Assembly: GCA_003990765.1 (NCBI GenBank)
Contig: RBNJ01000026.1
Coordinates: forward strand, 1 to 50,752
From: Jimgerdemannia flammicorona
Taxonomy: Eukaryota
Direction: 5' to 3'
DNA: 50,752 nucleotides
In this document: positions 10,401 through 48,206 of the stretch, in pieces
How the letters are laid out: each line of letters begins with the position of its first letter
Numbering within the stretch: the first letter of the stretch is position 1
Made by a program: the position numbers and the translations under genes
The notes under the pieces: model-generated
What the model was told of the DNA's origin: nothing
The model's database searches: none
The model's input: the letters and a program-made list of their open reading frames with translations, nothing else

Positions 10401-12375
10401 AAAACTGTTTGAATATATCTGAATGCCATTTGGACTTTGCAATGTACCCCCCCCCTTCCAGAGGATGATGAATTCAGTCTATGCTCTTCTGATCCACTAC
10501 TGTCTGATTGTATATATGGATGATTCCAATATCTATTCAGTGAATTTCAAAGAACACCTGCACCACCTAGAGGAATTCTTCAAGCTCACCTATAAGAATC
10601 ACTTGAGATTGAATGCAAAGAAATGCTACTTTGGGAAACAGAAGCTTGAATTCCTGGGATTCATAGTTTCAAAAGAAGGAACTTATACAGACTCAAAGAA
10701 AACTGAGAAGATCAACAATTGGTCAGTACCCAAGACCCCAAAGGAAACACTATCATTTCTGATGCTAGTATTCTACTACAGAAGATTTATCAAGAATTTT
10801 GCCCAAATTTCTGCCCCAATCTGAATCCTTCTCAAGAAAGGAGTACTATTCAAATGGACAGAATCATAAGAAAAAGCCTTTAAAAAACTCAAGAACAACA
10901 TGACTACAGCACTAATCCTTATACACCCCAATCTATAGAAGCCATTCATCTTATATACAGATGCTTCCAAAGGTGGCCTAGGAGCAGTTCTAGCCCAAAA
11001 AGGACCCAACCAACAGCACCATGTGATAGCTTATACAAGCAGAGCTACCAATCAGCAGCAGATGAACTATAGTAGCACCAAACTGAAATACCTTGCAGTC
11101 ATATGAGCGGTCACCCTGTTCAAGCATTATCTCATTGGAAAAAGGTTCACTCTGATCACAGACCATACAGCTCTCAAATAGTTATTCAACTATAAGGAAC
11201 CAATCAGAATTCTAGCCCAATGGATTCTTATTCTTCAGGATTACAAAATCACTATCATCTACAAAGCAGGGAAAGCCCACAACAATGTTTGATATACTTT
11301 CCCACCAACCCTAATGAATCAGAAGAAGGGTGTCCTGAGGAACTATACCCTAAAGAAAGCTCCTCAGACCATCAAGGTACAAGAAGATCTTATCTGAAAA
11401 CAATATCAGAAAGCCCATCAAGGACAGGTGAATGTAGAAGAGAAGCTACAAACAACATACTAACATTGGCCCAACCTTAGAATACAAGTCTGGGATATAT
11501 GTACTCAAGAAATGTGACACCTGCCAGAAGTACCAAGGAAGGAAGAACTATCAAGCACCATTACAACCAATTGCACCACCAGATAACATCTTTCAGAGAT
11601 GGGGAATAGATGTAATTGGACCTCTACCTGTTATATCAAGAAGAAACAAATATATCCTTGTATTTGTAGAACATCTGACCAAGTGGCCTGAGGCTTTCCC
11701 AATGGAAATCATAGATGCCCTAACCATTGTAGGCCTTCTCCATGGACTCACACTCAGATATGGACCCCTAGAAGAACTCATCTCTGACCGAGGCACAGAA
11801 TTTATCAATAATATAATCATAAGTTATGCTCGAATTCACAAGATACATCTCAAATGGACTACATCATACTACTCCCAGACCAATGGCATGACAGAAAGGA
11901 TGAACTAGACCATCAAGAAAGAACTTGCCCAAGTCAATTATACTAATTGGGACCTCTGCTTATCTGAGATCCTATGGGAAATTCAGAACACCCCTGCTGC
12001 CTCAACTAAACAAAAGCCATTTGAAATAATATTTGCTAAGAAAACAAGAACTACTGACCATGAGAACCTTGGAGATCTTCTCAAGAAGGCAGAACAGTTA
12101 CATAATCAGGCCCGAGATCAGATTATCAAAGTCTAAGAAAGATAAAAGAAGTACTACAACCAAAGATAAAAGGATCAGGAGATCAATATTGGAGATCAAG
12201 TAGTAGTTTGGAGAAGCATGATTGAAACAAATTTTGCCACCAAACTGGAACCCAAATGGGAAGGACCTTATCTTATACATAACATCAGAGAAACCAGCAT
12301 CTATTTAAGAAGCATGGATGGATGAACCCTCAGAACACCAGTATACATCAATTGCCTCAAGATATACCTTTCCCC
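7460..12375 (+). pseudogene. pol: pol of Gypsy A: aspartic protease, Cys-rich insert, dUTPase, RT, RNase H, integrase
   Basis: ILIDTGAAVCVI (~7505), CVDYRKLN/DAYPL, YMDD (~10513), LYTDAS.GGLGAVLAQ, ITDHTAL, WGIDVIGPLP, LISDRGTEF, QTNGMTERMN, W.GPY. Numerous premature stops. Confidence 0.92.
9110..9510 (+). pseudogene. dut: dUTPase domain in Gypsy A pol
   Basis: Motifs VGYDL, SRSGLA, GGTIDPRYIGEI, KIAQ and RQAKGFGSS, i.e. the five trimeric dUTPase motifs in order. Confidence 0.9.
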
Positions 12376-19739: not shown

Positions 19740-22700
19740 ATGTGAGAACCTCCCCCTGCATCATTAACAACAAAGTTACCTTCACACCTATTACTCCCAC
19801 CCTACCCCCACTCTGCCCACAAATCTTCTCTACCAAGTGATGCCATTGCCCACCCTGTAATCTCCAACCAAGCCATCAGTCTGTCAGAGTGTCTTCCATT
19901 AGTCTATGCTAGTGCAGCAGCTGATCCCCCAGGCTCAATCACCTCCCTTCTTCAAAAACAAGCAACCAGTGACCTGCCAACCCCACTCAAATTGCCAAAG
20001 TCCAACCCAATGTGAGCCACTCCTTTCCCACCCTCTCCACCAGTCTATCCCTCAAGTCCTCCCACCAGTCCTACATATGTACCATTTCCCCTATATGCTA
20101 CTCCCAAACAATCTCCAACAACCCTCCAAAAGTCACTAAGTACCTCATACTCTCCTAGCCAATGTTTAGGTGTCTGTATATATCTCCCAACCTGCCCTAC
20201 ATTATAGCACTCCTCACAGTCAAAACAACCCCCCATGACAAGGTGGCCTGAACAAAAGTTGAGCATGACATTTCTCCTCAATATGCACCACCAGATCACC
20301 CAGTACTTCAGTGGCATCTACCTCCGCACCTCAGCACTCTATGCCCAAATACCATGCCAGTCTTACTTCTCACCAATCCCCACCCCCTGCCATCTGCTAG
20401 GCCACAGATTCTGGCCTGGTCCTCATTGGCAGTCTATCTCATCACCAATGTCAAACTCGATTAAGGGCATGCCTCTCAGCAATACACAATCCCATCTCCA
20501 CATTACCAGGTCCCAAGCCTCATCTCCTTCATTTCCTCACCAACATATTTCAATACAGTGTACCCTCTCTACTACTCCCCACCAGAATCCTTTGTAATGT
20601 AGTTGGGCAATGTTCTGAAGTCCAACCAATGATAGGAAATCTCCTATTGAGCCTCTTGGTGAAGACCTCAACTCCCAAACTTTCTGCAAGAGCAGAACCC
20701 AACTGCCTCCTCTCAGCTCCATTACTCTCTTCATCCACCATACTCTCAGGCAATGTAGCCTCTTCAGGAAGTCAACCAGTCCAAGACCTCCTCTTTCCAC
20801 TGGTAAGGACAAGACCTCCCAACTGATCTGACTCCTCCTTCCAGCCCAGATCCACCCTTTGGTCAGCTTCAATAGTCTCTTTACCACCCAGGCTGGGAAA
20901 TCCAAATGATAAGCCAGATACCACAACTTTGGCAGCCAATAGACATTCAGAACTGATACACACCCCACCAGAGACAAGTGGCAACCTCCCCAGCTCCACA
21001 GGGCCTCCCCCAGACTCCTATTCACTGTTCCCACCAGAGTCTGGAAAGTGCTGATCTATATACTGACAAATAAATACCCAAGTACCACACTACCTCACCA
21101 GCAGGGACAATCATTCCAATAATGTCTCCCCCTACCAGGCCATTACCTAATACCATTGTCTCATACTTATACTAATTGAGTTTGGCCTCTGAGTTCATCT
21201 CATACCACTCCACTGTCTTCTTGAGCTCTTCAACATCAGTAATAGATCCCCGACTAACCACCATGGCATCTGCAAAGGCCCCAACTTTCCACCCAATTCC
21301 ATAGATATTGAGCCCTTCTATCTTCCTCTGAATTCTGTCCATTAGGGGTTCCAGTGAAAGAGTATACAGAATGGGGGTCAGTGGGTCCCCCTGCAGAACA
21401 CCCCTTCTCAGGGGAAATGGTACCCCTCTATACCCATTACAAATAAGTGCAGCCCTACTCCCTTCTAACAGGCTGACTATCACTAACCGGAACTAGTGTA
21501 GAACTCCAATTCTGTCCAATACTTTTGCTAGCCAGACTCACCTCACCCAGTCATAAACCTTCTCCTGATCTAAGAACACCAGTCTCCTATCTAGTCCACA
21601 AGCTCGTGCCCCTTTGATAATACCATGCACTCAGGCCATGCCATCTCTAATGAGCCAGCTGCCTACAAAGCCCCTCTGCTCAATACTCAAAACTTGCTGG
21701 GCCACCTTCTGTAGCCTCATGACTACCATCTTTGTGACCAATTTTCTGTCCATATCCAGCAGCATGATCAGCCGCCAGTTCTTCCAGTCCTCTCTCCTTC
21801 CTTTGTTCTTATAAAGCAGTAATACCAGCCCCAGATCCTGCTCCCCCACTCATCTCCCTGTCTGTAGGATAAAGTCACACAGTGCTGTCATCTCACCTAG
21901 TACTCTGGGAACTCCCACCATTTTCTTCCAGAAGTTCCAGGGCAGACCATCCTTCCCAGGTACAGTGCCCAGCATTGTCACCACAAGAACCTGGTAAATC
22001 TCTTCTTCTTGAACTGGCAGCACCAAGTCCTCCAGCCCATCCACTTGTGGGAGGTGCCAATCCTCCAATATCTGATCAATAGCATTAGGGTCAGCTCCAC
22101 CCTCCTCCTCACTCCACAATCCACTCTACCACTCCTTAAGCAATCCAAGAATGTCTTGTACACTATGTACTAGTATACCCTTATAGTCAATCACCCCCTC
22201 CTATCGTTACTGTATCCTTCTCACCTAAAGGGCCCTTGTGAGGTACTTTGAGGGCCTCTCCCCTTCCTCCAAATTCTGCCAACAAAGCTGTGCCACTAAG
22301 CTCTGTACTCTGGCCTCCTCCTCTTCCCATAGCATCTGTTGCAATTCTTCAACTTCCAATTTAGCCCTCCTCAACCTCCAGTCCTCACCTCCCACTGATG
22401 TTACAAGGCCTGCCCAGTCCTTTAAGAGTCAAGATAGCCTACCAGTAGCCCATCTCACCCATCACCTCCTCTGCTTCTCTACCTCCCTACCAATCTCACT
22501 CCAGTAGGCCCTTGTCCTCTCTTTCAACCTCATCTACTAAATACCAACAGGGGTACCTTTCTGTCTCCAGCTTGTCACCCTTAGTTGTATATCTTCAGCC
22601 CACTCATCCCACTGTCTCCCATCATCTAATAAAGAGACATTGAGGTGTCAATGTCCAGGCCTATTCCTACTTCCCCTGAAATGTCCTCATCCTAACAACT

Positions 22701-23385
22701 CTCAATAATCTGACCATGGACACCATTCTATCTCCAGTGACTTCTAGACATCCAAGCCCCAGCAGCTAGCAGTCAAAATCCAGTCAATCCTTGTCCCCAG
22801 ACCCCCTGCCCAATGTGTGTACACTCTCCTATCTCTCTAGCATTTCCTATCTACATCTACCAGAGCACTAAGTCTTTCCACTTCCTCCCATGCCACCAGC
22901 CCTCCACTCCTAGTCTCAGCTCCCCAGCCACCATCTGTTCTATCCAATCATGCATCCTGGACTATGTTGAAATCTCTATCAAGCATATTCACTCTAGCTT
23001 CTGCAAGAACCCCACTCTCCTGAAGACTCTGCACCTAATCTACAAATTCACCCTGCACAGCGGGGCAATAACAGGAGCCCACCATGACCAGCTCCCAACC
23101 CATATATATCCATTCTCCCCAGACCAGTCTATCTCCCCAGCTCCTCACATCCCATATCTCCCCTCTGCCTTTCCAGACCAGAATTCCCACCTTGCCCTTC
23201 CAGACTGCCTCTCCTCCCCATTCCTTCATCCAATCTAGTCTATCCAAATCATCTTCACACTGGACATCCTGCAATAGAAAGAGATCAGCATCCAATCCCT
23301 TCAGCCAAGTAAAAATGTTCCTATGTCAAAGAGTACTCCTCAGCCCATTTACGTTCAAAGAAAAAATGTTGGTTATACTATTCAT
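19740..23385 (-). pseudogene. LINE ORF2: APE endonuclease, reverse transcriptase, C-terminal Cys/His finger
   Basis: MNSITNIFSLNVNGLR, LFLLQDV, RIDWIL, PGKDGLP, NWRLIMLLD.D.K, GVLQGDPLTP, AFADAMVV, YLG, LPVERGGLGL, CFDC...H. Disrupted by stops. Confidence 0.9.
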
Positions 23386-23416
23386 AGTGAAATATGGTGT
23401 GTTATCTCATCCAACC

Positions 23417-25264
23417 CTACTGCTCCATGTTCCTCACTTCCTGCACTAAGTCTAGATTATATTCCACAGTCACCGCCTCCTCCTCAGTCCTCTGAGCCTC
23501 CAATCCAGCCAACAGCTCATTCATCTCTCTATCTGCCTTCTCCTCGAACTCTTCCCAGTACTCTAGGCAGGCCTCCTGCCAGAGCTGCAAACCATGATGC
23601 TTGGTCCAGCAGTATTCAGCCCTCTCGCCAGCAACACCTGCCAATTCTGCCTCTCACTCCTCATCCACCTCATACCCTTCCTCCTCCAAATAAACAGCAA
23701 GAATTTCTGCCTTCAATACCAACACCACTCCATCCCCCTGCAGGATCCTCACCCAATACTCATCACTCATAACCCTCAAGTCCACCTCCCCCAACTCATC
23801 AGCCATCAGGTTATTCATCATCTGATACATCCAAAGTAAGTTTCCTACCTCCTTCCCTCCAGAAGTCACTGGCCTCCCTCCATCCAGCATTGTGGTGTCA
23901 GCTCTGGCACTTGCAGACTCATCCCATGCCTCAGAGACATCCACTAGTTCCTCCTCCCTGGCTGCTACCCCTTGTCTCCTGTCCACTACCTCTGGAACTC
24001 CAAATTGAACTTGCTGGGCCCCCCACATAAGCACATCCTCCTCCATCCTTCATCAGGAAGCCGGACCACATCTGATAAGTGGGGTTGGGGTAGGTGAGGC
24101 TTCCCCATCCTCCTCCCAGACCTCCAACATACCATCAGCATAGAGGTCATTGCCCACCACCTCCTTGTCCTCTCCAGTCTCCTTCTCAGTGCCCCCACCA
24201 CTCTCACCTGCCCAGACACTCACTTTAGCATCTGCTATCTCCACCATTCCACCTGCATTCTTCTGTGACCTCCTCTCCAGCTTTGCCAGCAGCTCCTTCT
24301 GTCTCTTGCACCCCTGAGCCCTTTCTCACTATCTCTTGTCTACTCAGATCTGCTTCCCATCCACTACCTCCAGGCATGTGGACTCCACAAATACCTTTCA
24401 AGCCTTTGCCCTCCACTTCACCATGCCACCCAGCTCTTCCAGCACTTCCAACAAGTCCTCTTCCTCCTCCTCACTCCCCTTCACCCTTGTCACCTTGCAC
24501 AAGATTGCCCTCCAGACTATTACTGAAGGCCAGTCTCTCACCTTTCTGGTAGCTTCCTTCTCTGCCAGCCAAATCCTCACATCAACATCTCTAGTCCAGA
24601 GTGAGGTCCCTTTCCATACTCTAAAGCTGATGTCTACCACATCACCATACTCTGTCATAACCTCTTCAACTCTCCTTCTTGTCTCCACTGCTGTTACTGT
24701 AGATACCCCTTTCACCAACAGTTGTACCACCCTGGGATTCCACCTCAGACAGTGCATCATCAGAACACACACCTCCCCAACTGTCAATCCCACCTTCAGT
24801 GCCTCCTCCAACAGCTCAGCCTCCTCAAATCCCACCTCTACTCCCTCCAAACCCTTCAGAAACTTTATGGATACTGCTCCAGCCATCTGTTTAGTGATGA
24901 GACCCAGTACCATTTTTGCCATCACTACTAGGCCCCAGAAGCATAGAGTAACTACAAATGCCAAGATCAACTTCTTGAGTAATGGAGCCACTGCCAGGCC
25001 CATCACACCATCAGCCAAATCCTCTGATCTTCCAAGCCCCTGCCACTCAGTCCCACCATTGGTAGTTACATCTGGATTTTTTTCCAGATTGGCAGTCCCA
25101 TCTCCATCAGCTGTCATGCTCCCCCCAGCCACTATACCCCCAGCTCCACTGCCCCCACCACCAAGGGCTACTCCTCCCTGTACTGCTGTCTTCCCCACCT
25201 CCTTGCCTCTCCTCAGCCATCCCTCCAGCCCAGACACCTACTGTCTCCCCTTTACCATTTCCAT
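23417..25264 (-). pseudogene. LINE ORF1 (gag-like, fragmented)
   Basis: Long purine-rich ORF pieces (24398-25237, 23654-24046, 23417-23644) directly upstream of ORF2 and inside the TSD-bounded element. Confidence 0.65.
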
Positions 25265-27401
25265 GAAGCTCACCCTTCCAGACCCTGGTTCTCTACCACT
25301 GCCTCCTCCTCTACCACATCCTCCTGCCAGCAGTTCCCTCATACCTCCCCCCAGCCCAGGGCCTTGCCCCACCTGCTGCCAGTCAAACTTGCTTGGGCCA
25401 CCCTATCTAGTATGTACCTCAGATTGCTGGTCAGTCACTATGTTGCTAGTTACTTTCTCCAATAAACAGTGTTGTAAATGCTTTCCAAAGATTGTATAAC
25501 CTGAATGATACTGGAAAGAGCCATGCTGTATAACTGTTATTCTTCTGGCATTCTGATCTTGTATAACTCAAAATTCTTCTGGTATTCTTTTTCTATATCA
25601 TCAAAATTCTACTGGCATTCTAAACTTATACAATTACTTATACAGACAACTATAGTTTTCTATGTTCCAGTATTTTATTTGGTTATTGGAATTTATATTT
25701 AGCTTTATAACTTAGCAACCATTAAATTATTTTGTATAAATACCCCTCTTATTTCCTTTGAAATAAAGTTAGTTCTAGTTTACTTACTCTCAATTCCATG
25801 CAAGCAATCTAAAAGATAATAAGATAGTTTAAAGATAAGAAGTTTGAGGACTATAAGATCTTGGAAAGGTACTCCAATAAGAACTTGCTTATAACAAACT
25901 TGAGGTTAGTCTAAGAGATATATCTTGGAGAGAATCTGATATATTTGAAGAACTCAGCAACCACTATGTGACAACTTAGTATCTATTGGCTGGTGATTTA
26001 AGATGAATCCCTCACTTTCAAGCTAAAAAACAAACAACCACCACAATAACTACTCTGACTACAAGAGTCACCCCTGCAAGAATTCAAGACAAGATGGAAA
26101 TGTGTCTCTCTACATTCTATAGATAAGAGTCAATCCTGATCTTTATTAAAGACTTTGAACAATTTGCTACTATATGAGCCCTTGGCATAGATGCACAATT
26201 GGCCCTTCTATCTGTTAGTCTCAGAGGATCTACCAGAGACAAGTTCAATATAGCCATCATTGCTGATACTAGTGTAGCCAAACTGGTCAACATAAAGACC
26301 TTTCTCAGAACTACATACTATATTGAAGAGATCAAGCAAGCTCTCAAAGATTAACTCAATACTATCTGCCAGGGACTCAGTAAAGATTCCAACTCATTCT
26401 ACACTTGAATCTGCTACCAGATTGTCTTGGCTAACTATGATGATCACCTCAAGAATCAAATAGCTGATTCAACCTTTCTTAAAAGAGTTCATCCTGAAAT
26501 TGTCCTAGCAATCTGATCTATCCCAGCTGCTCTGATCCTTGATCAGAAAGTGATCTTTTTATAGAGATATTGGACTGCCAGACACCCTGCTGAATACTTA
26601 ATAAAGAAAATAACTAGCATCAAGAGAGAGCCATCAAAGTCAACCAGTATCATATCTGCCACAGTTGTAAACAGACAACTATTCCCACCTATTCCTGAGG
26701 TAGCCAAAGCTGACCTAGTAGAGGAACTCACCAAGCAGTTTACTGAGATAACTATATACCTTAGTGATATTGTTAGAGAAGTCTGAAGTACCAATAGGAG
26801 ACCAGTACAGAGATTTGCAGTTGTTACAGAAGAATGCAATATCACATACTTCAGATGTAGAGAAGAAGACCACTATACAAAGAGTTGTATGACTGAAATA
26901 AGATACAAAGTCCAACCAAGCAATGCTACCAGAACTAGAGAACAAACCAATACAGTAGTCATTGAGGAGATTAGTGACACTGATGATGAAGAATACTAAA
27001 AAGAGTCTGAATTCTACTCTGTTACTGAAGATGCCAGAACCTGGTCCAGCCCTATGATATGAAGAGCAACTGCAAGCCAGTTGGAAGACCAAAGAAGACT
27101 CTAGCTGTCATTATTCAAAGCAAGACCCAATCTGAGGAGATTGATCAATATATGGAGCTAGATGAAGCTGCTCACCAAATTATTGAAGATACTACTTCAG
27201 TCTCAGGAGAAAGTAAAAGCAAGAAAGAACAGAAGCTATGTAAGACTAAGATCTTATAAGGATCTCAAGGAATAGAAGGTCAATACTACTTTTGGACAAC
27301 TAGCTAAAGTCCCTGCCTTTAGACAGTAGTTGAGAGTAGGACTTACAACTACTACTAAGAATCAAGAGTATAAGATTGTAGAAGCTCACAATGCACAAAA
27401 A

Positions 27402-27456: not shown

Positions 27457-28214
27457 AGTACAAGATATCAACCTATACTCCATATTAGATTGAAGATTAT
27501 ATCTTTGATACTATCATTGATATTGGTGCTGGAGGATATCTCATGAGCAAGAAGACAATTGACTGCCTAGGCTAGGATATTGAAGAGTCTACCAAGATGA
27601 TCTATATTACAACAGATGATATATGAACTACCCCCCTAGACAAGATCCAAGAAGTTCTCATCAAGATTAAAGAAGCTACTATCCAGTAGATATGATTGTT
27701 ACAAGTACTACTAACTATGATATTCTCACTGGCAACCAATGGCTTCATAAGATCAAGACTGTTATTGATCTTAATGTCTAGAAGATATAGATCAACTATA
27801 GAGGAAGAAAGGTATGAGTCTCTATCAATATCCATAAAGAAGTACTACTAGACATGGAGAAAGGAGATGAGGAAGACACAGAAGTCTTCATGCACTTGGT
27901 ATATAAGAACAAAAGCAAGACACCCAAGCTCACAGATGAGCAGTAGTATAACAAGATCATCAATAACTATGCCCCTCAAGGAAGATACCCCCATGGTACT
28001 AAGATGTACTGCTCCAAACACCTGAATGACTACTAGTCCTATATTAGTGAAGTCAGGAAAATCCACCAATAAAAGTATAAGCAAGAAGCTGCTGAAGCAA
28101 AGAAGAAAGCCAAAGAAGATGATCAGCCCCCAGAGCTTCAAGCTGATAGTAATTATAAGGAGAAATAAGAACCAGACATCACTCTCAAGATCAAGAAGTT
28201 TTACTCTGAAGCCA

Positions 28215-28605
28215 AGATTCTAGAATACAAGACTGAAGAAGCCATAGGAATGGACCTTGCTAGTATTCAAGATACTACTCTTGAACCACAGACCACCACT
28301 CTACTTAGCACTAGAATTGGAGTCAAGTTATCAGAGAACTATACCAGAATTATCAAGACCAGAAGCAGTCTGGCCAAAAGTAAAATCTTAGTTGAAGGAG
28401 GAGTAATTGACTCTGATTACACTGGTGAGATCTTTGTCATAGTTAGGAATCACAACCCCACCACCCCATTCAAAGTCAAGAAGCATGATAGGATTGGTCA
28501 GATGCTGATCTACAAAATCAAGAAGCCTAAGATCACTGAAGCCATTAAACTCATCAAGATCAAGAGAGGAGAACAAGGCTTTAGATCTACTGGAAGAAGA
28601 GCCTA
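28215..28605 (+). pseudogene. dut: dUTPase domain in Gypsy B pol
   Basis: AIGMDL, TRSSLA, GGVIDSDYTGEI, RIGQ and RGEQGFRSTG motifs in ORF 28250-28855. Confidence 0.92.
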
Positions 28606-31600
28606 TACTGCTACCAAGATTACTGAACTTGAGCATAAGAAAGATAAGAACCAGAACAAGTACACATATACCATTGGAGAAAACTTTCCCCTAGAAGAAC
28701 AACTTCTCAAGATCCTGTACCAGAATGAAGAAGTACTTATCACAGACTTCAGAGACATCCACAATCAAGAACCCAAGTACTACTATAAAGTTGACACTAG
28801 TAATACCAAGCCCATCTACCAGAAAGCCAGACCTATACCATCTGCCTATAGATAATGGCTGTAAGCAGAACTCAAGGAAATGAAAGAAGCTAGAATCATC
28901 AAGCAAGCTATCAGCTCCTGGACTTCACTCAATATCCTCACCTCAAAGAAAGGAAGCAAGTCTAGAAAGTTTGCCCCAAGACTCTGTATTAATTACAGGA
29001 AGCTCAATACAATCACCAAGAAGGATAGGCAGCTCTTGCCAAATATTCAAGAAATTCTTACCACCCTTAGAAGCAAAGCCAAATACTATACTACCTTGGA
29101 TCTGTTCTCAAGCTTTCACCAGATTGGTCTCACTCAAGATGCCAGTGAGAAATCAGCCTTCATCACATCTGATGCCACCTATGTCTACTTGTGAATACTA
29201 TTTGAAATGTGCAATGCACCAGCAGGTTTTCAGTGAATTATGAGAATTATGAACAGAGTTTTCAGCAATGAGATTGGAAAATGGCTCTTTGTCTGTGATC
29301 ATCTTCAGTAATATATAGAAACATATCAACTATATACAGCTAGCTCTCAAGAAGCTCAAGGAATATAGCCTCTACAACAAACTCAAGAAATGTAAGTTTA
29401 CAGCTCAGGAAATCGCCTACCTAGGACACCTCATCAACCAGACTGGAATTCATATGGACCTCATAAAGATTGAGGCTGTTGTAGTCTACCCAAGACCCAG
29501 AACAACTACAGAAGTCTATGCCTTCCTTGAACTGGCCTCCTACTACAGAAAATTCATTAAAGGATACTCCAACATCACAGCACCTATCTACAAGCTACTG
29601 AAGAAAGAAACCAAATTCAAATAGATCAAGGAATGTCAAGAAACCTTCAATAAACTCAAGATCAGATTGACCCAAGTACTTATCCTCAGAAGACCAAGAG
29701 TTCATCCTGCAGACAGATACAAGTACTATAGGACTTAGAGCAGTCCTAGCTCAGAAGAAAGATAGACATAAATATGTCATCTTCTATGCAAGTTGAGATA
29801 TCTATAGAGCAGAACAGAACTACAAGTCATGCAAGCTCAAATGCTTAGTAGTAGTTTAGGCAGTAGACAATTTCCACTACTACCTAGCTGAGAAATACTT
29901 CACTATTCAAACAGACCATTCTGCCCTCACCTGGCTATTCTACACTCTGAACCCTAAAGGAATATATACCAGATAGATCTACAGGCTGTAAGAGTATAAC
30001 TATACTGTCAAGTACTGCTCAGGAAGAACCAATGCCAATATTGATACACTCTCAAGGATACTCCAAAATACCTCCATTAAGACTATTCAACATGAATAAG
30101 GAGTTACACTATAGATTAATCAGCTACCTCAGGCAGCAGAAGATGTCCAACCACCTCGAACTCTGGACTATCACTATTATTAACCAGACTTGGAAATAAT
30201 TTGAACTAGACAACACTATATTCAGAAAAGGAGAAAAGCTCATAATACTCAAATATAAGAAGTATCAAGTAATGAAGGAAGTATATGAACAAGAACACCT
30301 AGGAGGAACCAACATATATAATAAAGCAAGAAGAACTATATAGTGGCCCAAGATAGAAGAAGACCTGTGCCAATTTGTCAAAGGGTATGATAAGTGCTAA
30401 AAATAGAAATAAGATCAATAAGACCAGGTATCTGGGTCATCAAGAATTGAGCCTATCCCCTTCCACCACATTATAATAGATATTATTGGACTGCTACCAG
30501 TGACATTATCAGGAAACCACTATATTATAGTTATTATAGACCTCTTTACCAAATAGATAGAAGCAGGAGTACTACAAGAAGCCAATGCTCTCTCTATAGC
30601 TAACTTCCTGTACTGAGAAATCATCTGCCTCTATAAGACACTAAGGCAAATCACTACAGACTATAGCACAGAATTTGTCAATAGATTTCATGAGATAATG
30701 TATCAGAAATACAAGATTCAGCACATCAAGACCACCACATACCACCCTCAAGGAAATAGACAGATAGAGAGAACCAATAAGACCCTCAAGAACATTTTGG
30801 TGAAGATCTCAGATACATATGACAATTGGGATAACTATCTTCCAACCACCCTCTCTGTTCTATAAGATATATGATCACAGAGTACACACTTTACTCCAAG
30901 AGAACTGCTTTTTGGAGAAAAAGATTCTGATGGAACCTCAGCCACAAATCTAGATCTAACATGGAGACAGGTTGACTCAGAAATCCAGAGACTACACCAA
31001 ATCAAAAAGAAGGCTGAAGATTATATCTTCAAGTCACAAGTACTGATAAGGAAGAATGCAGAGAAGAATCACAAGACTCTAGAACCCATTCAAATCAGAG
31101 AAAAGGTTCTACTGTATCAAAATATAGTAGAAGCCTCATAGTTATGAAAACTGGAGCCTAAATGGAAAGGACTCTTCTATATGTAAGATATTAAGAAAAC
31201 TACCTTCTGGCTTAAAAAACTCTCAGGGACTATACTGTCTACTAAGGTACACAGGAACAGACTCAAGAAGTACTATGAACTTATATAAGAGAAGCAAAAT
31301 ATGATGACCACCCATGAGGTTCTAGTCTGTGAATCATAACAGCATATTTCATAACCAGTAGGCAATCTGTCTGGACTATTCTCTAAGGGATATGGTATCA
31401 GTAACTACTCATCTGTGAGACTTTTAAAGCCAGAGGAGTTCAAACCATCAACTGATTGGTCAAGATCAGAATCAGGCCCTTGCTCTATATGAAGGAAGCA
31501 ACTCTTTACCATTATGTCAAAATATATAAAGAAGATACTAGCCCATAAATACCACTTTTTGACCCCCTGTTAGAGGTTATGAGATCAGCAAATTTTTCAG

Positions 31601-38606: not shown

Positions 38607-38984
38607 CTTCCGTCCAGTCAACCTTTTATTTTGTTAAATGAGCCATTACGTGGCCCGCCTGCATCCTGTTGTATAGTTAAAACTTGTATTCATATAGCTT
38701 GTGCAGATAATATGATAAATGCAGCTTAGTTTGAGTTTCGTTTTAGTTGGCTCGAAGTACGCCTTTTCAATCTCTTCCGGTATTTTGTGTGGGCGTTTCC
38801 TTGAAGGTGTGATCTGTGTATGTCGGTGAAGACTGAAATCAGCAACTTACGCCAAAGAGATACAGGCGCTCAAGAGATTTGCCCTGAAAGAGACCCACTG
38901 CGTTCTGCAATTTCCGTTTATTTCAAGCTGTGCCACAGTTTAACGTATCTGTGAATCAACTCAAATCAAACACTAAACATAGTC

Positions 38985-39470
38985 GTGCAATCCAACAGTG
39001 GTCTTAACCTCAAGGATGATATCGGCTCCATATGGACAGATTCAGCCTACCACGACGTAACTATCGCCTGCGCTGATGGCGTCGAGCTTGGAGCTTGCCG
39101 TGCCATGCTGGCTGCAAGGCGTGTTCACAATTTTTATAGATCTATCTCATTAATTCATCTCATATGGTCCCAAAGATGCCCCGTCTTAAGGCAATGCTGT
39201 ACGGAAACATGCAAGAGAGCCTCCCAACAAGCCGTCCTCCACCATACCAACTCTGCAGCGCTCACTGTCGTCCTCGGCTTCATTTACACCGAGTCGATCG
39301 ATGAAACCACCATCACCATAGCGGTGGATATCTATCGTTTCCTTCTCCTCCCAAGGCTCACGGAAATGGTACTGGATAGCGCACCCAAGACATTTCCGAC
39401 TTTGGCGTCTCCTCGTCTCTCCTCAACGAGGCCGCCGCTGGAAGGTAGCAAGGACCTCTACCAGTCCACG
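38985..39470 (+). pseudogene. BTB/POZ-domain gene, probably pseudogenised and 3'-truncated
   Basis: LKDDIGSIWTDSAYHDVTIACADGVELGACRAMLAAR, a probable intron at ~39119-39175, then CPV-KAMLYGNMQES (needs a frameshift) and NSAALTVVLGFIYTE: a typical BTB pattern. No clear ATG. Similarity ends at ~39470. Confidence 0.72.
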
Positions 39471-39661
39471 TTCTCTCGTCCAGTACACATTTCAAACAAA
39501 AACAAAGTCTCGTTGATAACATCGAGATGTCTCGACGAGACCGGGATAGAATGAGACGAGAGAAGTCCTGTCTCGTCCCGTTTCGTACGGAGCACCACAT
39601 CAGTCCAAAGGTTGTGAGCTCTGGATAATGCTATATTCGTCACTCACTATGTTGATGCATG

Positions 39662-41290: not shown

Positions 41291-44200
41291 TCATTCTCGA
41301 TGCTTTCCTTTATTCCTAAATTTTCTGAATATCCTCCTAATTGGAATACGGAAAATTTTCAGAAACCTGCGCTTTGATGGGGTTTGAGTAGAGGAGTGGG
41401 CCTGCTCATCTGAAGGGGTTATAGAATGATAGTTGAATTCGGAATGGGATGGTAGATTGGACGTGGTAAGATCTTGTTCCACACCAACGACGTTGATAGG
41501 CTCCGCCATGATTTCACCAACCATAGCAGGGTTTATAGGGAGGTTGGCGGGTTCAGAATGGAACGGCGGATTGGATGTGGTGAGATCTGGATCTAAATCG
41601 ACGACTGCGTTAGACTCAGTTTTGATTTCATCAACCATAGCAGGAGTTTTCTCAGGATATTCCGCAATATTCTTGCCATTTTCGTCTTTGGAGATTCTTT
41701 TAATCAACTCATCCTCTGTGTGATACTTGCTGATGGAGCCAGCAACGAACGTAAACCTAGAAATGCCGGAGGGAATCTCCTTTTGTATTTTCTCTAGATA
41801 TGCCACGGCTTCAGGGACGTCGTCTAGCCATTTTTCGCCAGCGATTTCTGTCTCCATAGCTTCAAGATCTTCCAACACCTCATCGATAGTCGGTCGCATT
41901 TCGGGGTTAAGATTCCAGCACCTCTTGTAGATGTCCGAATATTCGATCGGAGTGCCGGGGATGGGTTCCTCACGTAATCCAGGTGAGATCGCATCGGGCG
42001 GACGCATTGCATTTCCACGAGGGCAGAATCTTGCGGTAAGCTGCCACAAAAGTGTTCCGAGGCAATATATATCGGATTTCTTCGTGCATGGTGAGCGTGT
42101 AAATGCTTCAGGTGGAAGGTATTCAATGCGGCCATAGGATTGGCCGCCGTATTTTCTGAAGTGTTGTACCGTGTTGCTAATGCCGACGTCAATAATCATG
42201 GGGTTGTCGTTCGCTGTACCGAATAATACAATGTTTCCTGGGTGCAAGTCATTATGGATCAAATCAGCTGTATGAACCACTTGCAGCCTGCAGGTGATTT
42301 CTAGCGCAAGCCGCCATACGTTTGACCATGATTTTGGCGGAGACTTAGTGAGTAGATTTGCAAGGTCACCACCGGCAGCATATTCCATCACCAAAATATA
42401 ACCGCCATTATCATTCTTTGATAATCCAATAACTGTTGGTGTTGCTACTCTACGAGAATTGCTGCAGAGTTGAAGATAGACATTGAGTAATATCTGTATA
42501 AGAATTAGAAAAATGGAATCCAACCCAAGTTAGTAATGGAAAACAATATATCCTTAATTTCCACAGATACAAAAGAGTATATTGTAAACTGGAATCACCT
42601 CATTCCGGAGTTTATCTATTACATGATCATTTCCTTTCAGCTCCTTCAACGCAACAAATTTTTCTCCTTTCCGATTATCATTCACTTGAGCTTTGTATAC
42701 GATGCCAAATCCACCTTCGCCTAACTTTTCAATCTGTGTAAACTCACAATAAGGAATCCAAGTCATGCAAGGTGCGAGTTCGGCGATTTGAAGCATTGTT
42801 AGGTACTCCAGGAGTTTCTCATCATCACTGGAGAAGCCAGTCTTGAATTTTGACATAACTTTGATGTCAGAATTTTTGATTACTTCAATAATTTGAACAA
42901 GATGCAATTTGCTTGAGGCTGTTTCATGAAATCCAGCCAGCATTCGAAGGTCATGAGTCGAGTATTTTGTCCAAGTGGTAAACGACAGTTCGTACAGTTT
43001 TTACATACCATTGAGATTGTATTTCGACTTTGCCAAATACGCGTTCCGTTCCTGAAACGTATTAATAACACGCAATGTTTCGTCCCCAATGCGATTGTCT
43101 GATGAACAGTGGAAACACGCATGGGGTGAGCTGATATCCATTATGTAGCTGCAAACAGCAGTTCATACATACCTTGTAGATTCAGCGTGGTCACGGTCAT
43201 GTTCTGCTTCAGCGACTCGGCCAGTGCGCGTGCTCCCTCGTCGCCGATTCCGTTGTCTGAATATGAACAAAGGATGAATAAGCACACAACACACAGATGG
43301 TGAGCTGGTACCCATCACGCAGCTCAAAATACCTCGGAGATTCAGCGTAGTCACGGTGGTGTTCTGCTTCAGAGACTCGGCCAGTGAACGTGCTCCCTCG
43401 TCACCGATTCCGTTGTCTGAAGGTGAAGAGAGCAAGTACGCATGATTGGTGAGCTGGTATCCAACATGCAGTTGCAAACAGCAGTTCACAAAGTTCAAAC
43501 ATACAATCGAGATTCAGCGTGGTCACGGTCGTGTTCTGCTTCAGAGACGCGGCCAGTGCGCGTGATCCCTCCTTGCCGATTCCGTTGCCTGAAGATGAGC
43601 AGATGATAGATTACCAAACAATCTCCAGTGGTGAGCTAGTACACATCATATAGCTGCAAAAAAAAGTTCAGAGTTCAAACATACGTTGGAGATTCAGCGT
43701 GGTCATGGTCATGTTCTGCTTTAGAGACTCGGCCAGTGCGCGTGATCCCTCCTTACCGATTTCGTTCTCTGAAGATGGACAGAGGATGAATCAGCCAACA
43801 CGTATGGGTGGTGAGCTACCCATCACGTAGCTGCAAACAGCAGTTCACACGATCCAAACATACTTTCAAGATTCAACGTGGTCACAGACGTATTCTGCTT
43901 CAGAGACGCAGCCAGTGCGCGTGCTCCCTCGAGGCCGATTCTGTTGTCTGACGATGAACAGAGAATGCATGAGCAAATGGAGTAAGTATATACCCATCAC
44001 GCAGCTCGAAGTCTTGTTCCGCTTGAAAGCCTTGTCTATGTCAATTATCATCTCGACGCCTTTAAACTCATTCCTTGAAAAATGCATAAATACGCACATC
44101 GGATCACCTACATTCAAAAAGTCACCGACATACCTTCGACGTTCAGCTGCGTAAGTGCCGTGTTTTGTTTCAGAGACTCAGCCAGAACACGGGCACCCTC

Positions 44201-47200
44201 ATCGCCGATGCTATTCACTAAAAAATGCACAAATACACATAGGTCAGCTAGATCGAATCACCCGCATTTAAATAGTCACACACTGATTTCCGACATACTT
44301 TCGAGATTCAGCTGGGTAAGCGTCATGTTCTGCTTCAGAGACTCGGCCAGAGCATGAGCACCCTCAGCGCCGACTTTATTATCTAAATGAACATACACGG
44401 GTTAGCTGGATCAAATCACCCACATTCAAACAGCCACACACTGACTTCCGGCATACCTCCGAGATTCAGCTGGGTAAGGGTCGTGTTCTGCTTCAGAAAC
44501 TCCGCCAGAGCACGAGCACCATCAGCGCCGATAGAGTTCCCTGAAAAATACACAAATACGCACAAGTCAGCTGGATTGAATCACTCATATTCAAACATTG
44601 ATTTCTGACTGACTGTAGAGATCCAGCTGAGTAAGGGTCGTGTTCTGCTTCAGTGAAGCGGCCAGTGCGCGTGCTCCCTCGAGGCCGATTCTGTTGTCTG
44701 ACGGCGAACAGAGGATGGGTGAGCAAACACACACAGGTGGTGAGCAGGTCCATCACGCAGCTTAAACATACCATAGAGATTCAGCGTGGTCACGGTCGTG
44801 TTTTTCTCCAGAGACTCGGCCAATGCTTGTGCTCCCTCGTGGCCGATTCGGTTGTCTGAAGGTAAGCAGAACATGGATAAGCAAACACGCATGGCCGATG
44901 AGCTGGTACCCATCACGTAGCTGCAAACAGCAGTTCACACAGTTCAAACATACGTTGGAGATACAGCGTGGTGTCGGTCGTGTTCTGCTTCAGAGACTCG
45001 GCCAGTACGCGTGCTCCCTCGTCGCCTATTTCGTTATCTGAAAATGAAGAGAGAATGGATGAGCAAACACGCGCGACCCATCCCATAACTGCAGACAACG
45101 GTTTTCGTAATTTCGACATACCCCTGATATTTGGTTTAGTCAAAGTCTTGTTCCTCTTCAAAGCTTTATCTACTATCTCGCCGCCTTTAAACACATCCCC
45201 TGAAAAATGCACAAATACGCATAAGTCAGCTGAATCGAATCACCCACATTCAAACAGTCACCAGACATACTTTTGAAATTCAGCTGGGTAAGGGTCATGT
45301 TCTGCTTCAGAGACTCGGCTAGAACACGGGCACCCTCATCGCCGATTTGGTTTTCTAAATGAGTACGCACAGATCAGCTGGATCGAATCACCCACATTCA
45401 AACAGTCACATACTGTTTCCGACATACCTTCGAGATTCAGCTGGCTAAGGGTCGTGTTCTGCTTCAGAGACTCGGCCAGAACACGGGCACCCTCAGTGCC
45501 GATTTTGTTACCTAAACGAATACGCGCAGGTCAATTGGATTGAATCACCCTAAACAGCGCACACTGATTTCCGACATACCGTAGAGATTCAGCTGGGTAA
45601 GGGTCGTGTTCTGCTTCAGAAACTCCGCCAGAGCACGAGCACCCTTAGCGCCGATTTTGTTCCCTGAAATTCACAAATACGCACAGATCAGATCAACCAA
45701 ATCACCCACATTCAAACAGCCTAACACTAATTTCCGACATACTTTTGAGATTTAGCTGGGTAAGCGTCGTGTTCTGCTTCAGAGACTCGGCCAGGGCACG
45801 GACACCCTCATCACCGATGATATTCCCTGAAAAATATACAAATAGCACAGATCAGCTGTATCGAATCACCCACATTCAAAGTCACACATTGATTTTCGAC
45901 ATACCGTAGAGATCCAGCTGGATAAGGGTTGTGTTCTGCTTCAGAGACTCGGCCAGAGCACAGGCACCCTCAGCGCTGATTTCGTTATCTAAATTAATAC
46001 GTACAGGTTAACTGGATCGAATCACCCACATTGATACAGTTGCACACAAATTTCCGACATACCTCCGAGATTCAGCCGGGCAAGAGTCGTGTTCTGCTTC
46101 AGAGACTCGGCCAGAGCACGAGCACCCTCAGCGCCGATGCTATTCACTGAAAAATGCACAAATATGCACTAGTCAGCTGGATGGAATCACCCACATTCAA
46201 ACAGTTACACACTGATTTCCGACATACCGTAGAGATCCAACTGGGTAAGGGTTGTGTTCTGCTTCAGAGACTCAGCCAGAGCACGGGCACCCTCAGCACC
46301 GATACTATTCACTGAAAATGCACAAATATGCACTAGTCAGCTGGATCGAATCACACACATTCAAACAGTTAAACACTGATTTCCGATATACTGTAGAGAT
46401 CCAGCTGGATAAGGGTTGTGTTCTGCTTCAGAGACTCGGCCAGAGCACGGGCACCCTCAGCGCCGAATTCGTTTTCTAAATAAATACGCACAGGTTAGCT
46501 GGATCGGGTCACACATATTCAAACAGTTGCACACTAATTTCCGACATACTTCCGAGATTCAGCTGATTAAGGGTCGTGTTCTGCTTCAGAGACTCGGCCA
46601 GAGCACGGGCATCCTTAGCGCGGATGCCATTTCCTGAAAAATGCACAAATACGTATAGGTCAGCTGGATCGAGTCACCCACATTCAAATAGTCACACATT
46701 GAATTCCGACATACTGGAGAGATTCAGCTGGGTAAGGGTCGTATTCTGCTTTAGAGACTCGGCCAGAGCACAGGCACCCTCAGCGTCGATTTTATTATCT
46801 AAATGAATACACACGGGTCAGCTGGATCGAATCACCCTCATGAAAACAGAACAAACCGATTTCGGACATAATTACATTCGAGATTCAGCTGGGTAACGGT
46901 CGCGTTCAGCTCCAGAGCCTCGGCCAGAGCACGGGTACCCTCATTGCCAATTATGTTACCTATAATGAATATGCACACTTCAGCTGGATATATTCAAATA
47001 GTCCCACACTGATTTACGACATACATACCTCCGAGATTCAGCTGGGTAAGTGTCGTGTTCTGTTTCAGAGATTCGGCTAGAGCACGACCACCCTCAGAGC
47101 CAATGCTATTTCCTGAAAATTCACAAATACGCACAGATCAGTTGGATCAAAGCACCAACAACCAAATAGTCACACACTGATTTCCGACATACTGGAGAGA

Positions 47201-48206
47201 TTCAGCTGAGTAAGGGTTGCGTTCTGCTTCAGAGACTCGGCCAGAGCACGGGCACCCTCAGCGCGAATGTTATTCTCTAAAAAATGCACAAATACGCATA
47301 GGTCAGCTGGATCGAATTTACCCACATTCAAACAGCACACATCAATTTCCGACATACTTTCGAGGTTCAGCTGGGTAAGCGTCGTGTTCTGCTTCAGAGA
47401 CTCGGCCAGAGCACGAGTACCCTCGTCGCTGATGTCATTCCCTGAAAAATTCACAATACCCAAAGGTCAGCTGAATCAAATCATTGACATTCAAACAGCA
47501 CACATTGATTTACGACATACATTCGAGATTCAGCTGGGTAAGCGTCGTGTTCTGCTTCAGAGACTCTGCCAGAGCACGGGCACCCTCATTGCCAATTCCG
47601 TTATCTATAATGAATATGCACATGTCAGCTGGATGGAATCACCCACATTCAAACACTAATTTCAGACATACGGTAGAGATTCAACTGGGTAAGGGTCGTG
47701 TTCTGCTCCAGAGACTCGGCCAGAGCACCAGCACCGTCATCGCCAATGAAATTCCCTAAAAAAATTATAAATACGCACAAGTCAGCTGGACGGAATCACC
47801 CAAATAGTTATACACTGATCCCGATATACATATGAGATTCAGCTGGGTAAGGGTCGTGTTCTGCTTCAGAGACTCGGCCAGAGCACGGGCACACCTATCG
47901 CCGTAAAAATTTCCTGATAAAATGAACAAATACGCACAGATCAGCCAGATTGAATCATTCACATTCAAACAGTCACACACATACTTTTGAGATTCAGGTG
48001 TAAAAGGGTCGTGTTCTGCTTCAGAGACTCGGTCAACGCGAGTACACCGTTATTGTCAATACCCTCTCCTTAAGATAAACGGATGGATAAGTAAATAGGC
48101 ATAGATCGCCAGTTGAAACTCGTCAGACAGCTGCAATCAACAGTTCACTCAGTTCAAACATACCGGAGAGATCCAGCGTAGTCTGGGTCGTGAGAAGTGT
48201 TCGCAT
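41291..48206 (-). CDS. Cytosolic LRR (RNI/NLRC3-like) - tyrosine-kinase-like protein kinase, ~1389 aa, 34 coding exons
   Basis: Exon 1 is 48206-48164 (MRTLLTTQTTLDLS). Then 29 exons of exactly 84 nt, with upper bounds 48068, 47913, 47755, 47604, 47441, 47276, 47112, 46959, 46798, 46633, 46475, 46311, 46146, 45988, 45826, 45663, 45511, 45354, 45037, 44855, 44697, 44540, 44382, 44217, 43947, 43768, 43588, 43416, 43256. Cap-like exons at 45199-45122 and 43098-43009; kinase exons at 42918-42599 and 42493-41291. All introns are GT-AG and the spliced frame is open. Kinase motifs: GEGGFG, VALK, HNDLHPGN, DVG, YLPPE, SDIY.LG, RP. Confidence 0.88.
43173..48068 (-). repeat. Tandem exon-intron array (~155-180-bp units), one 28-aa LRR per unit
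   Basis: Consensus xNxIGxEGARALAESLKQNTTLTQLNLx. Introns are mutually homologous and fall into two families. Confidence 0.95.

Follow-up and report, generated by a model that had tools for sequence, protein, structure and literature searches.

In most human NOD and NLRC genes, one exon encodes one 28-residue leucine-rich repeat (LRR) of the ribonuclease inhibitor (RI) type, and each such exon preserves the reading frame (Hoss et al. 2019, PMC6642158). Single-LRR exons are also found in the ROCO genes of brown algae, where they duplicate and shuffle, leave inactivated copies within introns, and have four positions per repeat under positive selection (Zambounis et al. 2012, PMC3341825; Teng et al. 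2024, PMC11378527). Fungal NLRs contain highly similar WD, ANK, or TPR repeats in which a few sites are under diversifying selection, and LRR motifs were absent from them in that study (Dyrka et al. 2014, PMC4986451). A survey from 2010 detected hardly any fungal LRR receptors or LRR-kinases, reported fungi to be without LRR pattern-recognition receptors, and places fungal LRR-plus-kinase proteins only in one chytrid (4 genes) and one small group of ascomycetes (5 genes) (PMC2939053). The gene described here lies in a stretch of 50,752 nucleotides from the fungus Jimgerdemannia flammicorona (GenBank assembly GCA_003990765.1, contig RBNJ01000026.1, positions 1 to 50,752 of the forward strand); this whole stretch is called the window below. 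On its minus strand, at 41291..48206, is a predicted LRR-kinase gene in which 29 exons of 84 nucleotides each encode one LRR. Four positions per repeat differ between these exons far more than the introns of the array do, and the best explanation is that they are under diversifying selection, to which we assign a probability of roughly 0.7.

The coding region comprises 34 exons and 33 GT-AG introns (67-186 nucleotides), with a coding sequence of 4170 nucleotides, 1389 amino acids, and a single terminal stop. A scan for AG, 84 nucleotides, and GT that also required phase 1 and an open frame yields exactly 29 exons on the minus strand, from 48068 to 43173, which is precisely the array (43173..48068) that an initial annotation of this DNA had delimited. 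A regular expression for the core motif has 25 matches on the minus strand and 0 on the plus strand. Independently, Tandem Repeats Finder reports a unit of about 165 nucleotides in 17.0 copies (45264-47980), together with further units of 158 and 180 nucleotides. All 29 exons are in phase 1-1, and each consists of two bases that close a split codon, 27 whole codons, and one base that opens the next split codon. The spliced unit is a 28-residue RI-type LRR, x-N-x-I-G-x-E-G-A-R-A-L-A-E-S-L-K-Q-N-T-T-L-T-Q-L-N-L-x, and the consensus of the 29 repeats, LTQLNLxxNxIGxEGARALAESLKQNTT, conforms to the RI-type pattern LxxLxLxx(N/C)xL. With positions numbered L1-x-x-L4-x-L6-x7-x8-N9-x10-I11-G12-x13, every exon border splits the x8 codon after its first base. 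Each repeat is one exon, with a phase-1 intron inside the x8 codon of LxxLxLxxNxIGxxG, at the predicted end of the beta strand.

Variation among the 29 exons is concentrated at positions 7, 8, 10, and 13. Amino-acid entropy is 3.07 bits at x10 (the residue after the conserved N), 2.83 bits at x7 (the last full codon), and 2.43 bits at x13 (four residues after the N), and the split codon, x8, specifies 10 different residues. Twenty-four of the 28 positions have at most 1.27 bits, and five columns (three Leu and two Asn) are the same in all 29 exons. Mean pairwise identity between repeats is 0.69 (range 0.46-0.89); it is 0.14 at the four hypervariable positions and 0.78 at the other 24. The near-invariant core and the variability at the last full codon, the split codon, and the residues around N-x-I-x-x, all described in the initial annotation, are therefore borne out, as is the assignment of the variable residues to x positions of LxxLxLxxNxI.

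To place these residues on a fold, the repeat register was read on the AlphaFold model of a Jimgerdemannia relative (P0003, 44% identical to the query open reading frame (ORF); no alignment was used). In this model, strands span position 3 to position 7 or 8, helices begin at 12-13, and strand and helix alternate in register. In a Foldseek search with the model, the matches include NOD2 (1.2e-11) and RI complexes. Matsushima et al. (PMC4598782) assign positions 3-5 to the concave-face strand, and in their nomenclature the ascending loop joins the strand end to the helix. Read this way, x7, x8, x10, and x13 are predicted to lie along the rim of the concave face and over the ascending lateral surface. 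The annotation had placed the variable residues on the ligand-facing side of the solenoid. The rim and ascending surface agree with that placement, but the central concave positions do not, being conserved (x3 is Q or T in 27 of 29 exons, and x5 is N or D in 28 of 29). In this reading, the continuous stripe of hypervariable residues is a likely candidate for a ligand-binding surface, and binding there would control the kinase.

The neutral yardstick for this variability consists of the introns of the array, which are well conserved between units and from which the splice signals were removed, and of the third positions of the exon core. Introns fall into two classes, A (67-81 nucleotides; units 1-17 and 21-23) and B (74-98 nucleotides; units 19-20 and 25-29). 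Among the 20 class-A units, mean p-distance is 0.577 at the 12 hypervariable nucleotides (those of x7, x8, x10, and x13), versus 0.212 in introns, 0.216 at core third positions, and 0.109 at core first and second positions. The hypervariable distance exceeds the intron distance in 187 of 190 unit pairs, and hypervariable sites are about 2.7 times more different than intron and synonymous sites. The initial annotation had proposed that its interpretation would fail if the variable sites varied no more than synonymous or intron sites, and they vary much more (0.577 versus 0.212-0.216).

Because unit pairs are not independent, parsimony steps were counted as well, on trees built without the hypervariable columns. 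With exon-plus-intron units, hypervariable sites have 7.42 steps per site, introns 1.89, and core third positions 2.04 (Mann-Whitney p=1.9e-7). With junction-centered units, in which every hypervariable patch is measured against its own adjoining intron, the values are 6.08 versus 1.91 in class A (p=1.7e-6) and 1.75 versus 0.81 at the 6 class-B junctions (p=0.0024). At least 6 steps are needed by 9 of 12 hypervariable columns and by 1 of 64 intron columns. Across unit types, the hypervariable substitution count by parsimony is 2.2-3.9 times the intron count.

Codon-based measures point in the same direction. The proportion of nonsynonymous differences (pN) by the Nei-Gojobori method is 0.63 at hypervariable codons, whereas the other 24 codons have a pN of 0.12 and a proportion of synonymous differences (pS) of 0.34; these are pooled values, the only usable ones, some per-codon pS values exceeding 1 from site normalization. 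In codon likelihood, omega is 0.43-0.46 for the core, and the scaffold residues are under purifying selection. For the hypervariable codons, a free omega improves on omega=1 by 11 log-likelihood units, with the estimate at its bound of 50 and a tree length of 106, so this result gives direction only. The excess at the four positions may reflect selection for new binding specificities.

Several points count against diversifying selection, or against the larger picture built upon it. The four hypervariable codons were picked for being variable, which biases the tests upward, codon likelihood most of all, and their branch lengths are saturated in that analysis. The repeats recombine, so a single tree is approximate, and the selection tests are confined to repeats within this single array. 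Synonymous differences are also raised at the hypervariable codons (pS 0.41-0.50 versus 0.27-0.34). The surface is assigned by register alone, on a model (overall pLDDT 53; 62-91 in the LRR part) of a relative and not of the window's protein. Among contigs from the two public sequencing runs considered below, some are unspliced across introns 0, 2, 7, 8, and 21. Lastly, no LRR family is matched at E <=0.001 by any of 12 kinase relatives (10 of 150 listed, plus P0009 and P0010), in which truncated gene models are possible, so the LRR-kinase architecture is so far without a second named species.

The raised synonymous differences are also a point for the main rival explanation, neutral escape from homogenization. 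Under it, unconstrained hypervariable sites would have drifted to saturation while gene conversion and unequal crossing-over kept resetting cores and introns. Cores and introns are indeed equally similar (0.216 versus 0.212), as expected under concerted evolution, the chimeric exons described below reflect active recombination, and the identity of 0.14 at the hypervariable positions is near the random level. The location of the variable sites is harder to accommodate. Upstream of the intron, a patch of 4 nucleotides sits between the homogenized core and the intron and yet has 5-8 steps per site; a conversion tract crossing from core to intron would overwrite this patch, which counts against neutral escape. 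The same argument applies to x10, which lies between invariant N and I codons. Moreover, the hypervariable excess is present in both intron classes, and a free omega fits better than omega=1, with the ascertainment caveat given above. We regard neutral escape as improbable, and diversifying selection on the four positions remains the preferred reading.

The history of the array is partly legible in its units. The 3' ends of class-A introns form two subtypes, …TTTTCAG and …ATTTAG/ATTATAG. Tandem Repeats Finder also reports a higher-order period of 487 nucleotides, or three units, at 45198-47892 (5.6 copies, 78% matches). This period is in keeping with a loose pattern in which two introns end in …TTTTCAG and the next in …ATTTAG, with the first bases of the next exons matching. 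Two exons are chimeric. The 5' half of exon 21 is of class B, with 2 differences from exon 25, and its 3' half is of class A, with 4 differences from exon 11 and 14 from exon 25; in its sequence, the boundary of the segmental duplication described below is visible. Exon 12 resembles exon 13 on its 5' side and exons 14 and 11 on its 3' side. In both resolvable recombinant exons (12 and 21; 2 of 2), the breakpoint is inside the conserved exon core, and none is in an intron.

A relic exon provides further evidence of duplication. The longest intron (186 nucleotides, 43948-44133, after exon 24) holds, at 44003..44073 by alignment and translation, a decayed copy of the atypical repeat exon described below. 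In this copy, the CAG acceptor has become CAAG, and there are a 9-nucleotide insertion, deletions, and in-frame stops; its alignment blocks with 45270-45038 have 80-89% identity. The relic implies that a block consisting of a class-A intron, the atypical exon, and class-B units was duplicated. Growth of the array most likely came from exon-plus-intron units that were duplicated in tandem and recombined unequally, together with at least one larger segmental duplication, and recombination would occur between the long, near-identical exon cores.

Breakpoints within exon cores mean that the residues at a junction are inherited as one intron-spanning cassette. The moving unit would comprise the end of one exon, the intron, and the start of the next exon. 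Judged from these exons, the inherited module is probably x7 and the first base of the split codon, the intron, and then two bases followed by N, x10, I, G, and x13, so that all four hypervariable residues of one structural repeat would travel together. Weak co-inheritance of junction flanks and introns in class A agrees with such a cassette (Mantel r=0.15, p=0.03). For the class-A downstream flank, the Mantel correlation was not significant (r=0.11, p=0.11), and the test over all junctions is dominated by the split between classes A and B. Because recombination falls in exon cores, the split codon is one of four hypervariable codons and is not itself the engine of diversity. The intron happens to interrupt the variable patch, much as introns of animal NLR repeats interrupt the strand (PMC6642158).

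The initial annotation had proposed a different mechanism, in which diversity arises at the junctions themselves by exon reordering (alternative splicing would act likewise), and in which exon order is selected to avoid the stops formed by T followed by GA, AG, or AA. All exons are 84 nucleotides in phase 1-1, so any skip keeps the frame. The arithmetic of this proposal holds, in that 16 of 30 single-exon skips give a residue unlike those at both parental junctions, and stops are made by only 2 of 30 single skips and by 16 of 465 forward skips. Modular LRR exons are alternatively spliced in NLRP3 (PMC6642158) and in brown-algal ROCO genes (PMC11378527). Four exons end in T (at 47830, 47521, 46876, and 43505), and, as the annotation had recorded, the exons that follow start with GG, GG, AT, and AC, giving W, W, Y, and Y; none of the four meets any of the eight exons, among 29, that start with GA, AG, or AA. 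However, when the 30 internal exons are shuffled at random, 28.1% of 200000 arrangements are also free of stops (p=0.28). Since no intact gene can contain such stops anyway, stop-free junctions are not evidence of selection on exon order. The two recombinant exons break inside their cores and preserve their junction codons, flanks and introns are weakly co-inherited in class A, and three of the four hypervariable codons are whole, with only one split. Contigs that join distant exons (see below) are inseparable from paralogue transcripts or assembly-graph chimeras. Diversification at the junctions is accordingly a quite unlikely source of the variation, and core-to-core exchange of cassettes carrying selected residues is the reading followed below.

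Beyond the features already given, the minus-strand gene is organized as follows. Exon 1 (48164..48206) starts with the ATG at 48206, is 43 nucleotides long, and encodes half an LRR (…TTLDLS); its last base opens a split codon. Exons 1-10 of the array start at 48068, 47913, 47755, 47604, 47441, 47276, 47112, 46959, 46798, and 46633, exons 11-20 at 46475, 46311, 46146, 45988, 45826, 45663, 45511, 45354, 45037, and 44855, and exons 21-29 at 44697, 44540, 44382, 44217, 43947, 43768, 43588, 43416, and 43256, each ending at its start minus 83. For an LRR exon starting at s, bases 2-3 of the split codon are at s and s-1, x10 is at s-5..s-7, x13 at s-14..s-16, x7 at s-80..s-82, and the base that opens the following split codon at s-83.

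LRR exons 1-18 (45271..48068) are associated with class-A introns of 67-81 nucleotides that have the form GTATGTCGGAAA … CAGCTGAC … YAG, and Tandem Repeats Finder gives periods of 165 and 487 nucleotides for them. Between LRR 18 and LRR 19 is an atypical repeat exon (45122..45199) of 78 nucleotides and 26 residues, DVFKGGEIVDKALKRNKTLTKPNIR, in phase 1-1, with AG/GT flanks and the frame kept. The next segment, 44614..45037, contains LRR exons 19 and 20, which belong to class B (…TTLNL) and have longer introns of the form GTATGTTTGAAC…, as well as the chimeric exon 21 (44697-44614). It is followed by LRR exons 22-24 of class A (44134..44540) and LRR exons 25-29 of class B (43173..43947; Tandem Repeats Finder period 180, 2.8 copies). 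After LRR 29 there is a terminal divergent LRR exon, DNRIGDETLRVINTFQERNAYLAKSKYNLN, at 43009..43098, and the total number of RI-type LRRs in the gene is about 31. A linker and the kinase N-lobe, with the G-loop GEGGFG and the VALK lysine, occupy the exon at 42599..42918, and the exon at 41291..42493 encodes the kinase C-lobe, with HNDLHPGN, DVG, and PPE, followed by a C-terminal tail whose final stretch is basic. From the last LRR, which ends at about amino acid 882, to the kinase G-loop at amino acid 949 there are only about 65 residues.

The introns are short and have GTATGT donors and a CTGAC-like motif ahead of the acceptor, which is a fungal pattern. Intron 21 (44541-44613, minus strand; 73 nucleotides) has the donor GTCAGT, versus GTATGT in most others, and its retention would lead to a stop a few codons downstream. 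The atypical 26-residue repeat lacks the LxL core. Ribonuclease inhibitor itself has about 15 repeats. Because some 31 RI-type repeats far exceed one horseshoe, the atypical repeat might split the LRR solenoid into two sub-domains.

Contigs from two public runs, X1 and X2, cover part of the region; neither run is on record as RNA, and their RNA nature is a guess. Three predicted introns (42494-42598, 42919-43008, and 43257-43332) are exactly removed in X1/X2 contigs, which indicates that a spliced form is present in these samples. The joint over 43257-43332 has CT..AC ends and occurs in both runs. The kinase C-lobe exon is joined to the linker exon in X1 and X2 (42493 to 42599), and the linker exon to the terminal LRR exon in an X2 contig (42918 to 43009). 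One X2 contig ends at 48214. The unspliced contigs noted above, of which those across intron 21 (44511-44642) occur in both runs, imply that unspliced RNA or DNA is present as well. Exon order is unreadable from the short array contigs, since two places fit 376 of the 701 X1 contigs and 229 of the 350 X2 contigs. Several contigs have array cores on both sides and, between them, 11-12 other letters that occupy the x7, x8, N, and x10 codons in frame, and these sequences hint that paralogues varying at the same positions are expressed. Among 15 joints examined, from a larger set with 46 more, some connect distant exons, for example 44366 to 47520 in both runs; for these, exon skipping, paralogues, and assembly-graph chimeras are indistinguishable.

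These data also bear on the idea that the array is a decaying pseudogene whose hypervariable sites represent early decay. The decayed exon copy in intron 24, the GTCAGT donor of intron 21 with its unspliced contigs in both runs, and the retroelement remnants in the window (see below) are what such decay might leave. Against this, canonical splice sites join the 34 exons into an open frame of 1389 codons, and spliced contigs exist. For the core, omega is 0.43-0.46, and its first and second positions change at about half the frequency seen in introns. Variation is limited to four register positions, and the kinase catalytic motifs are present. We judge a non-functional array to be very improbable, and treat the gene below as an intact one with four selected positions per repeat.

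Profile searches place the gene in two protein families. A read-through ORF at 47173-47466 matches LRR_6 (PF13516; E 7.2e-8, 32.4 bits against a cut-off of 23.4). The kinase ORF at 41294-42529 matches PF07714 (E 2.1e-22, 80.1 bits, cut-off 23.1) and PF00069 (E 1.5e-19, 70.8 bits, cut-off 31.7), whereas the linker and N-lobe exon has a weak PF07714 match (E 6.4e-4, 19.5 bits) below the 23.1-bit cut-off. In addition to these profile scores, the spliced translation contains GEGGFG, VALK, HNDLHPGN, DVG, and PPE, which we take to be the usual kinase catalytic motifs. No membrane span is predicted (maximum 19-residue Kyte-Doolittle mean 1.04 against a threshold of 1.6; no dedicated transmembrane or signal-peptide predictor was used). 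Judging by its sequence, the product is probably a soluble protein with about 31 RI-type LRRs followed by a TKL-type protein kinase.

Three known classes of LRR protein were considered for this gene and set aside. By the Kyte-Doolittle profile, there is no hydrophobic window for a membrane span, which argues against an LRR receptor kinase of the plant or oomycete type. Membership of the NLRs was rejected, as the model runs from the ATG through LRRs to the kinase with no nucleotide-binding domain; in Pfam, the ORFs of the gene match only LRR_6 and kinase families, with no NACHT or NB-ARC, and 41.3-48.2 kb contains no further minus-strand open frames of at least 60 amino acids. Membership of ROCO/LRRK was likewise rejected, Pfam giving neither ROC nor COR on the scanned ORFs of the gene.

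For the LRR part, the closest named relative is a Jimgerdemannia flammicorona protein, and all named relatives are from Mucoromycota. For the kinase, identity to an Endogone protein is 48% and to Rhizophagus kinases 33-36%; its nearest relatives, P0044 and P0046, are 54-57% identical. A search with the linker and N-lobe ORF gave no longer relatives at E 0.001 or better among 400 candidates. The linker before the kinase (…DDEKLLEYL…L…WIPYxEF…EKLGEGGFG; 42599-42918) recurs in P0046 and P0044 with other N-terminal domains or none. The sharing of this linker despite differing N-termini suggests a kinase family that exchanges N-terminal sensor modules. P0001 (201 amino acids), from another organism, appears in these comparisons as a read-through of a similar array, in which 28-residue LRRs are separated by stretches of 24 in-frame intron codons, near-identical between units. 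It reads through three in-frame introns, and it varies at the same positions. As this example illustrates, LRR-exon arrays can be mis-annotated as continuous ORFs.

Among described systems, animal NOD/NLRC and NLRP genes (PMC6642158) have a similar exon design: LRR exons in NOD/NLRC genes measure 84 nucleotides, the exon border is at a fixed place in the beta sheet, and exon loss keeps frame and fold. The P0003 model is also closest to NOD2 and RI structures. In contrast to the animal genes, the gene in the window has no NACHT or NB-ARC, carries a C-terminal kinase as effector, and belongs to a fungus. It also has 29 near-identical exons with conserved introns, which point to recent tandem growth.

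The brown-algal ROCO genes (PMC3341825, PMC11378527) share more of the evolutionary pattern. They have a small exon of constant size and symmetric phase, tandem exon duplication, relic LRR exons in introns, and four selected positions per repeat, and fast evolution of binding specificity in a signaling protein has been proposed for them. The duplication and shuffling seen in Ectocarpus ROCO-type genes have their counterparts here in conserved exon-plus-intron units, the 3-unit period, the chimeric exons 12 and 21, and the relic exon. A few positively selected positions per repeat are likewise found here, with the caveats of ascertainment and saturation, and with the face assigned by register only. 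The two systems differ in that the algal exons are 72 nucleotides in phase 2 and encode LRRs resembling the 'typical' class, whereas these are 84 nucleotides in phase 1 and RI-type. The algal proteins are ROC-COR GTPases of a stramenopile, whereas this is a kinase of a fungus, with breakpoints in exon cores.

The WD40, ANK, and TPR repeats of fungal NLRs (PMC4986451) are also fungal, near-identical, recombining tandem repeats with a few selected positions (four in WD) and a proposed role in non-self recognition. Unlike the LRRs in the window, they are not described as one per exon, and the NOD domain is absent here. The HIC criterion of that study, more than 85% identity over at least 100 residues, is higher than the 69% mean identity of these repeats (maximum 89%). 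LRR receptor kinases of the plant and oomycete type resemble this gene in coupling an LRR recognition domain to a protein kinase. They differ in that the protein here has no signal peptide or membrane span (by Kyte-Doolittle only) and in their LRRs, which are plant-specific and extracellular there and RI-type and intracellular here.

The remainder of the window holds several other features. On the plus strand, at 9244-12000 and 28169-28855, are ORFs for dUTPase (two copies), reverse transcriptase (10423-10824), and integrase (11438-11908). These ORFs are remnants of dUTPase-carrying retroelements. A BTB/POZ ORF (38955-39554, plus strand; E 1.8e-6) is just downstream of the kinase gene on the opposite strand. 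The region 20000-26000 has a GC content of 0.47-0.49, a GC skew of -0.41 to -0.49, and two small tandem repeats only; no Pfam family is matched by its long ORFs, which lie on both strands. The window also contains AT-rich spacers.

The mechanism that emerges for this array is of a known kind. What is new is the fungal host, the joining of RI-type LRRs to a TKL kinase, and recombination from core to core. Within the limited collection of literature searched, no description of fungal arrays of this kind was found. We tentatively suggest, while considering it rather doubtful at present, that the Mucoromycota, which are early-diverging fungi associated with plants and bacteria, own a family of cytoplasmic LRR-kinase receptors whose recognition stripe is diversified by core recombination that moves four-residue cassettes. 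The gene has the features commonly associated with a rapidly evolving recognition surface: its scaffold is invariant, four positions per repeat change about three times faster than introns, and its repeats actively recombine. If the suggestion is true, LRR-based innate recognition would exist in a kingdom reported to be without LRR pattern receptors, in parallel to animal NOD/NLRC and brown-algal ROCO proteins. If it is confirmed in more genomes, the gene would be a concrete candidate for a fungal LRR receptor in symbiosis or non-self sensing, and fungi would represent a third independent lineage that uses arrays of one LRR per exon to diversify binding.

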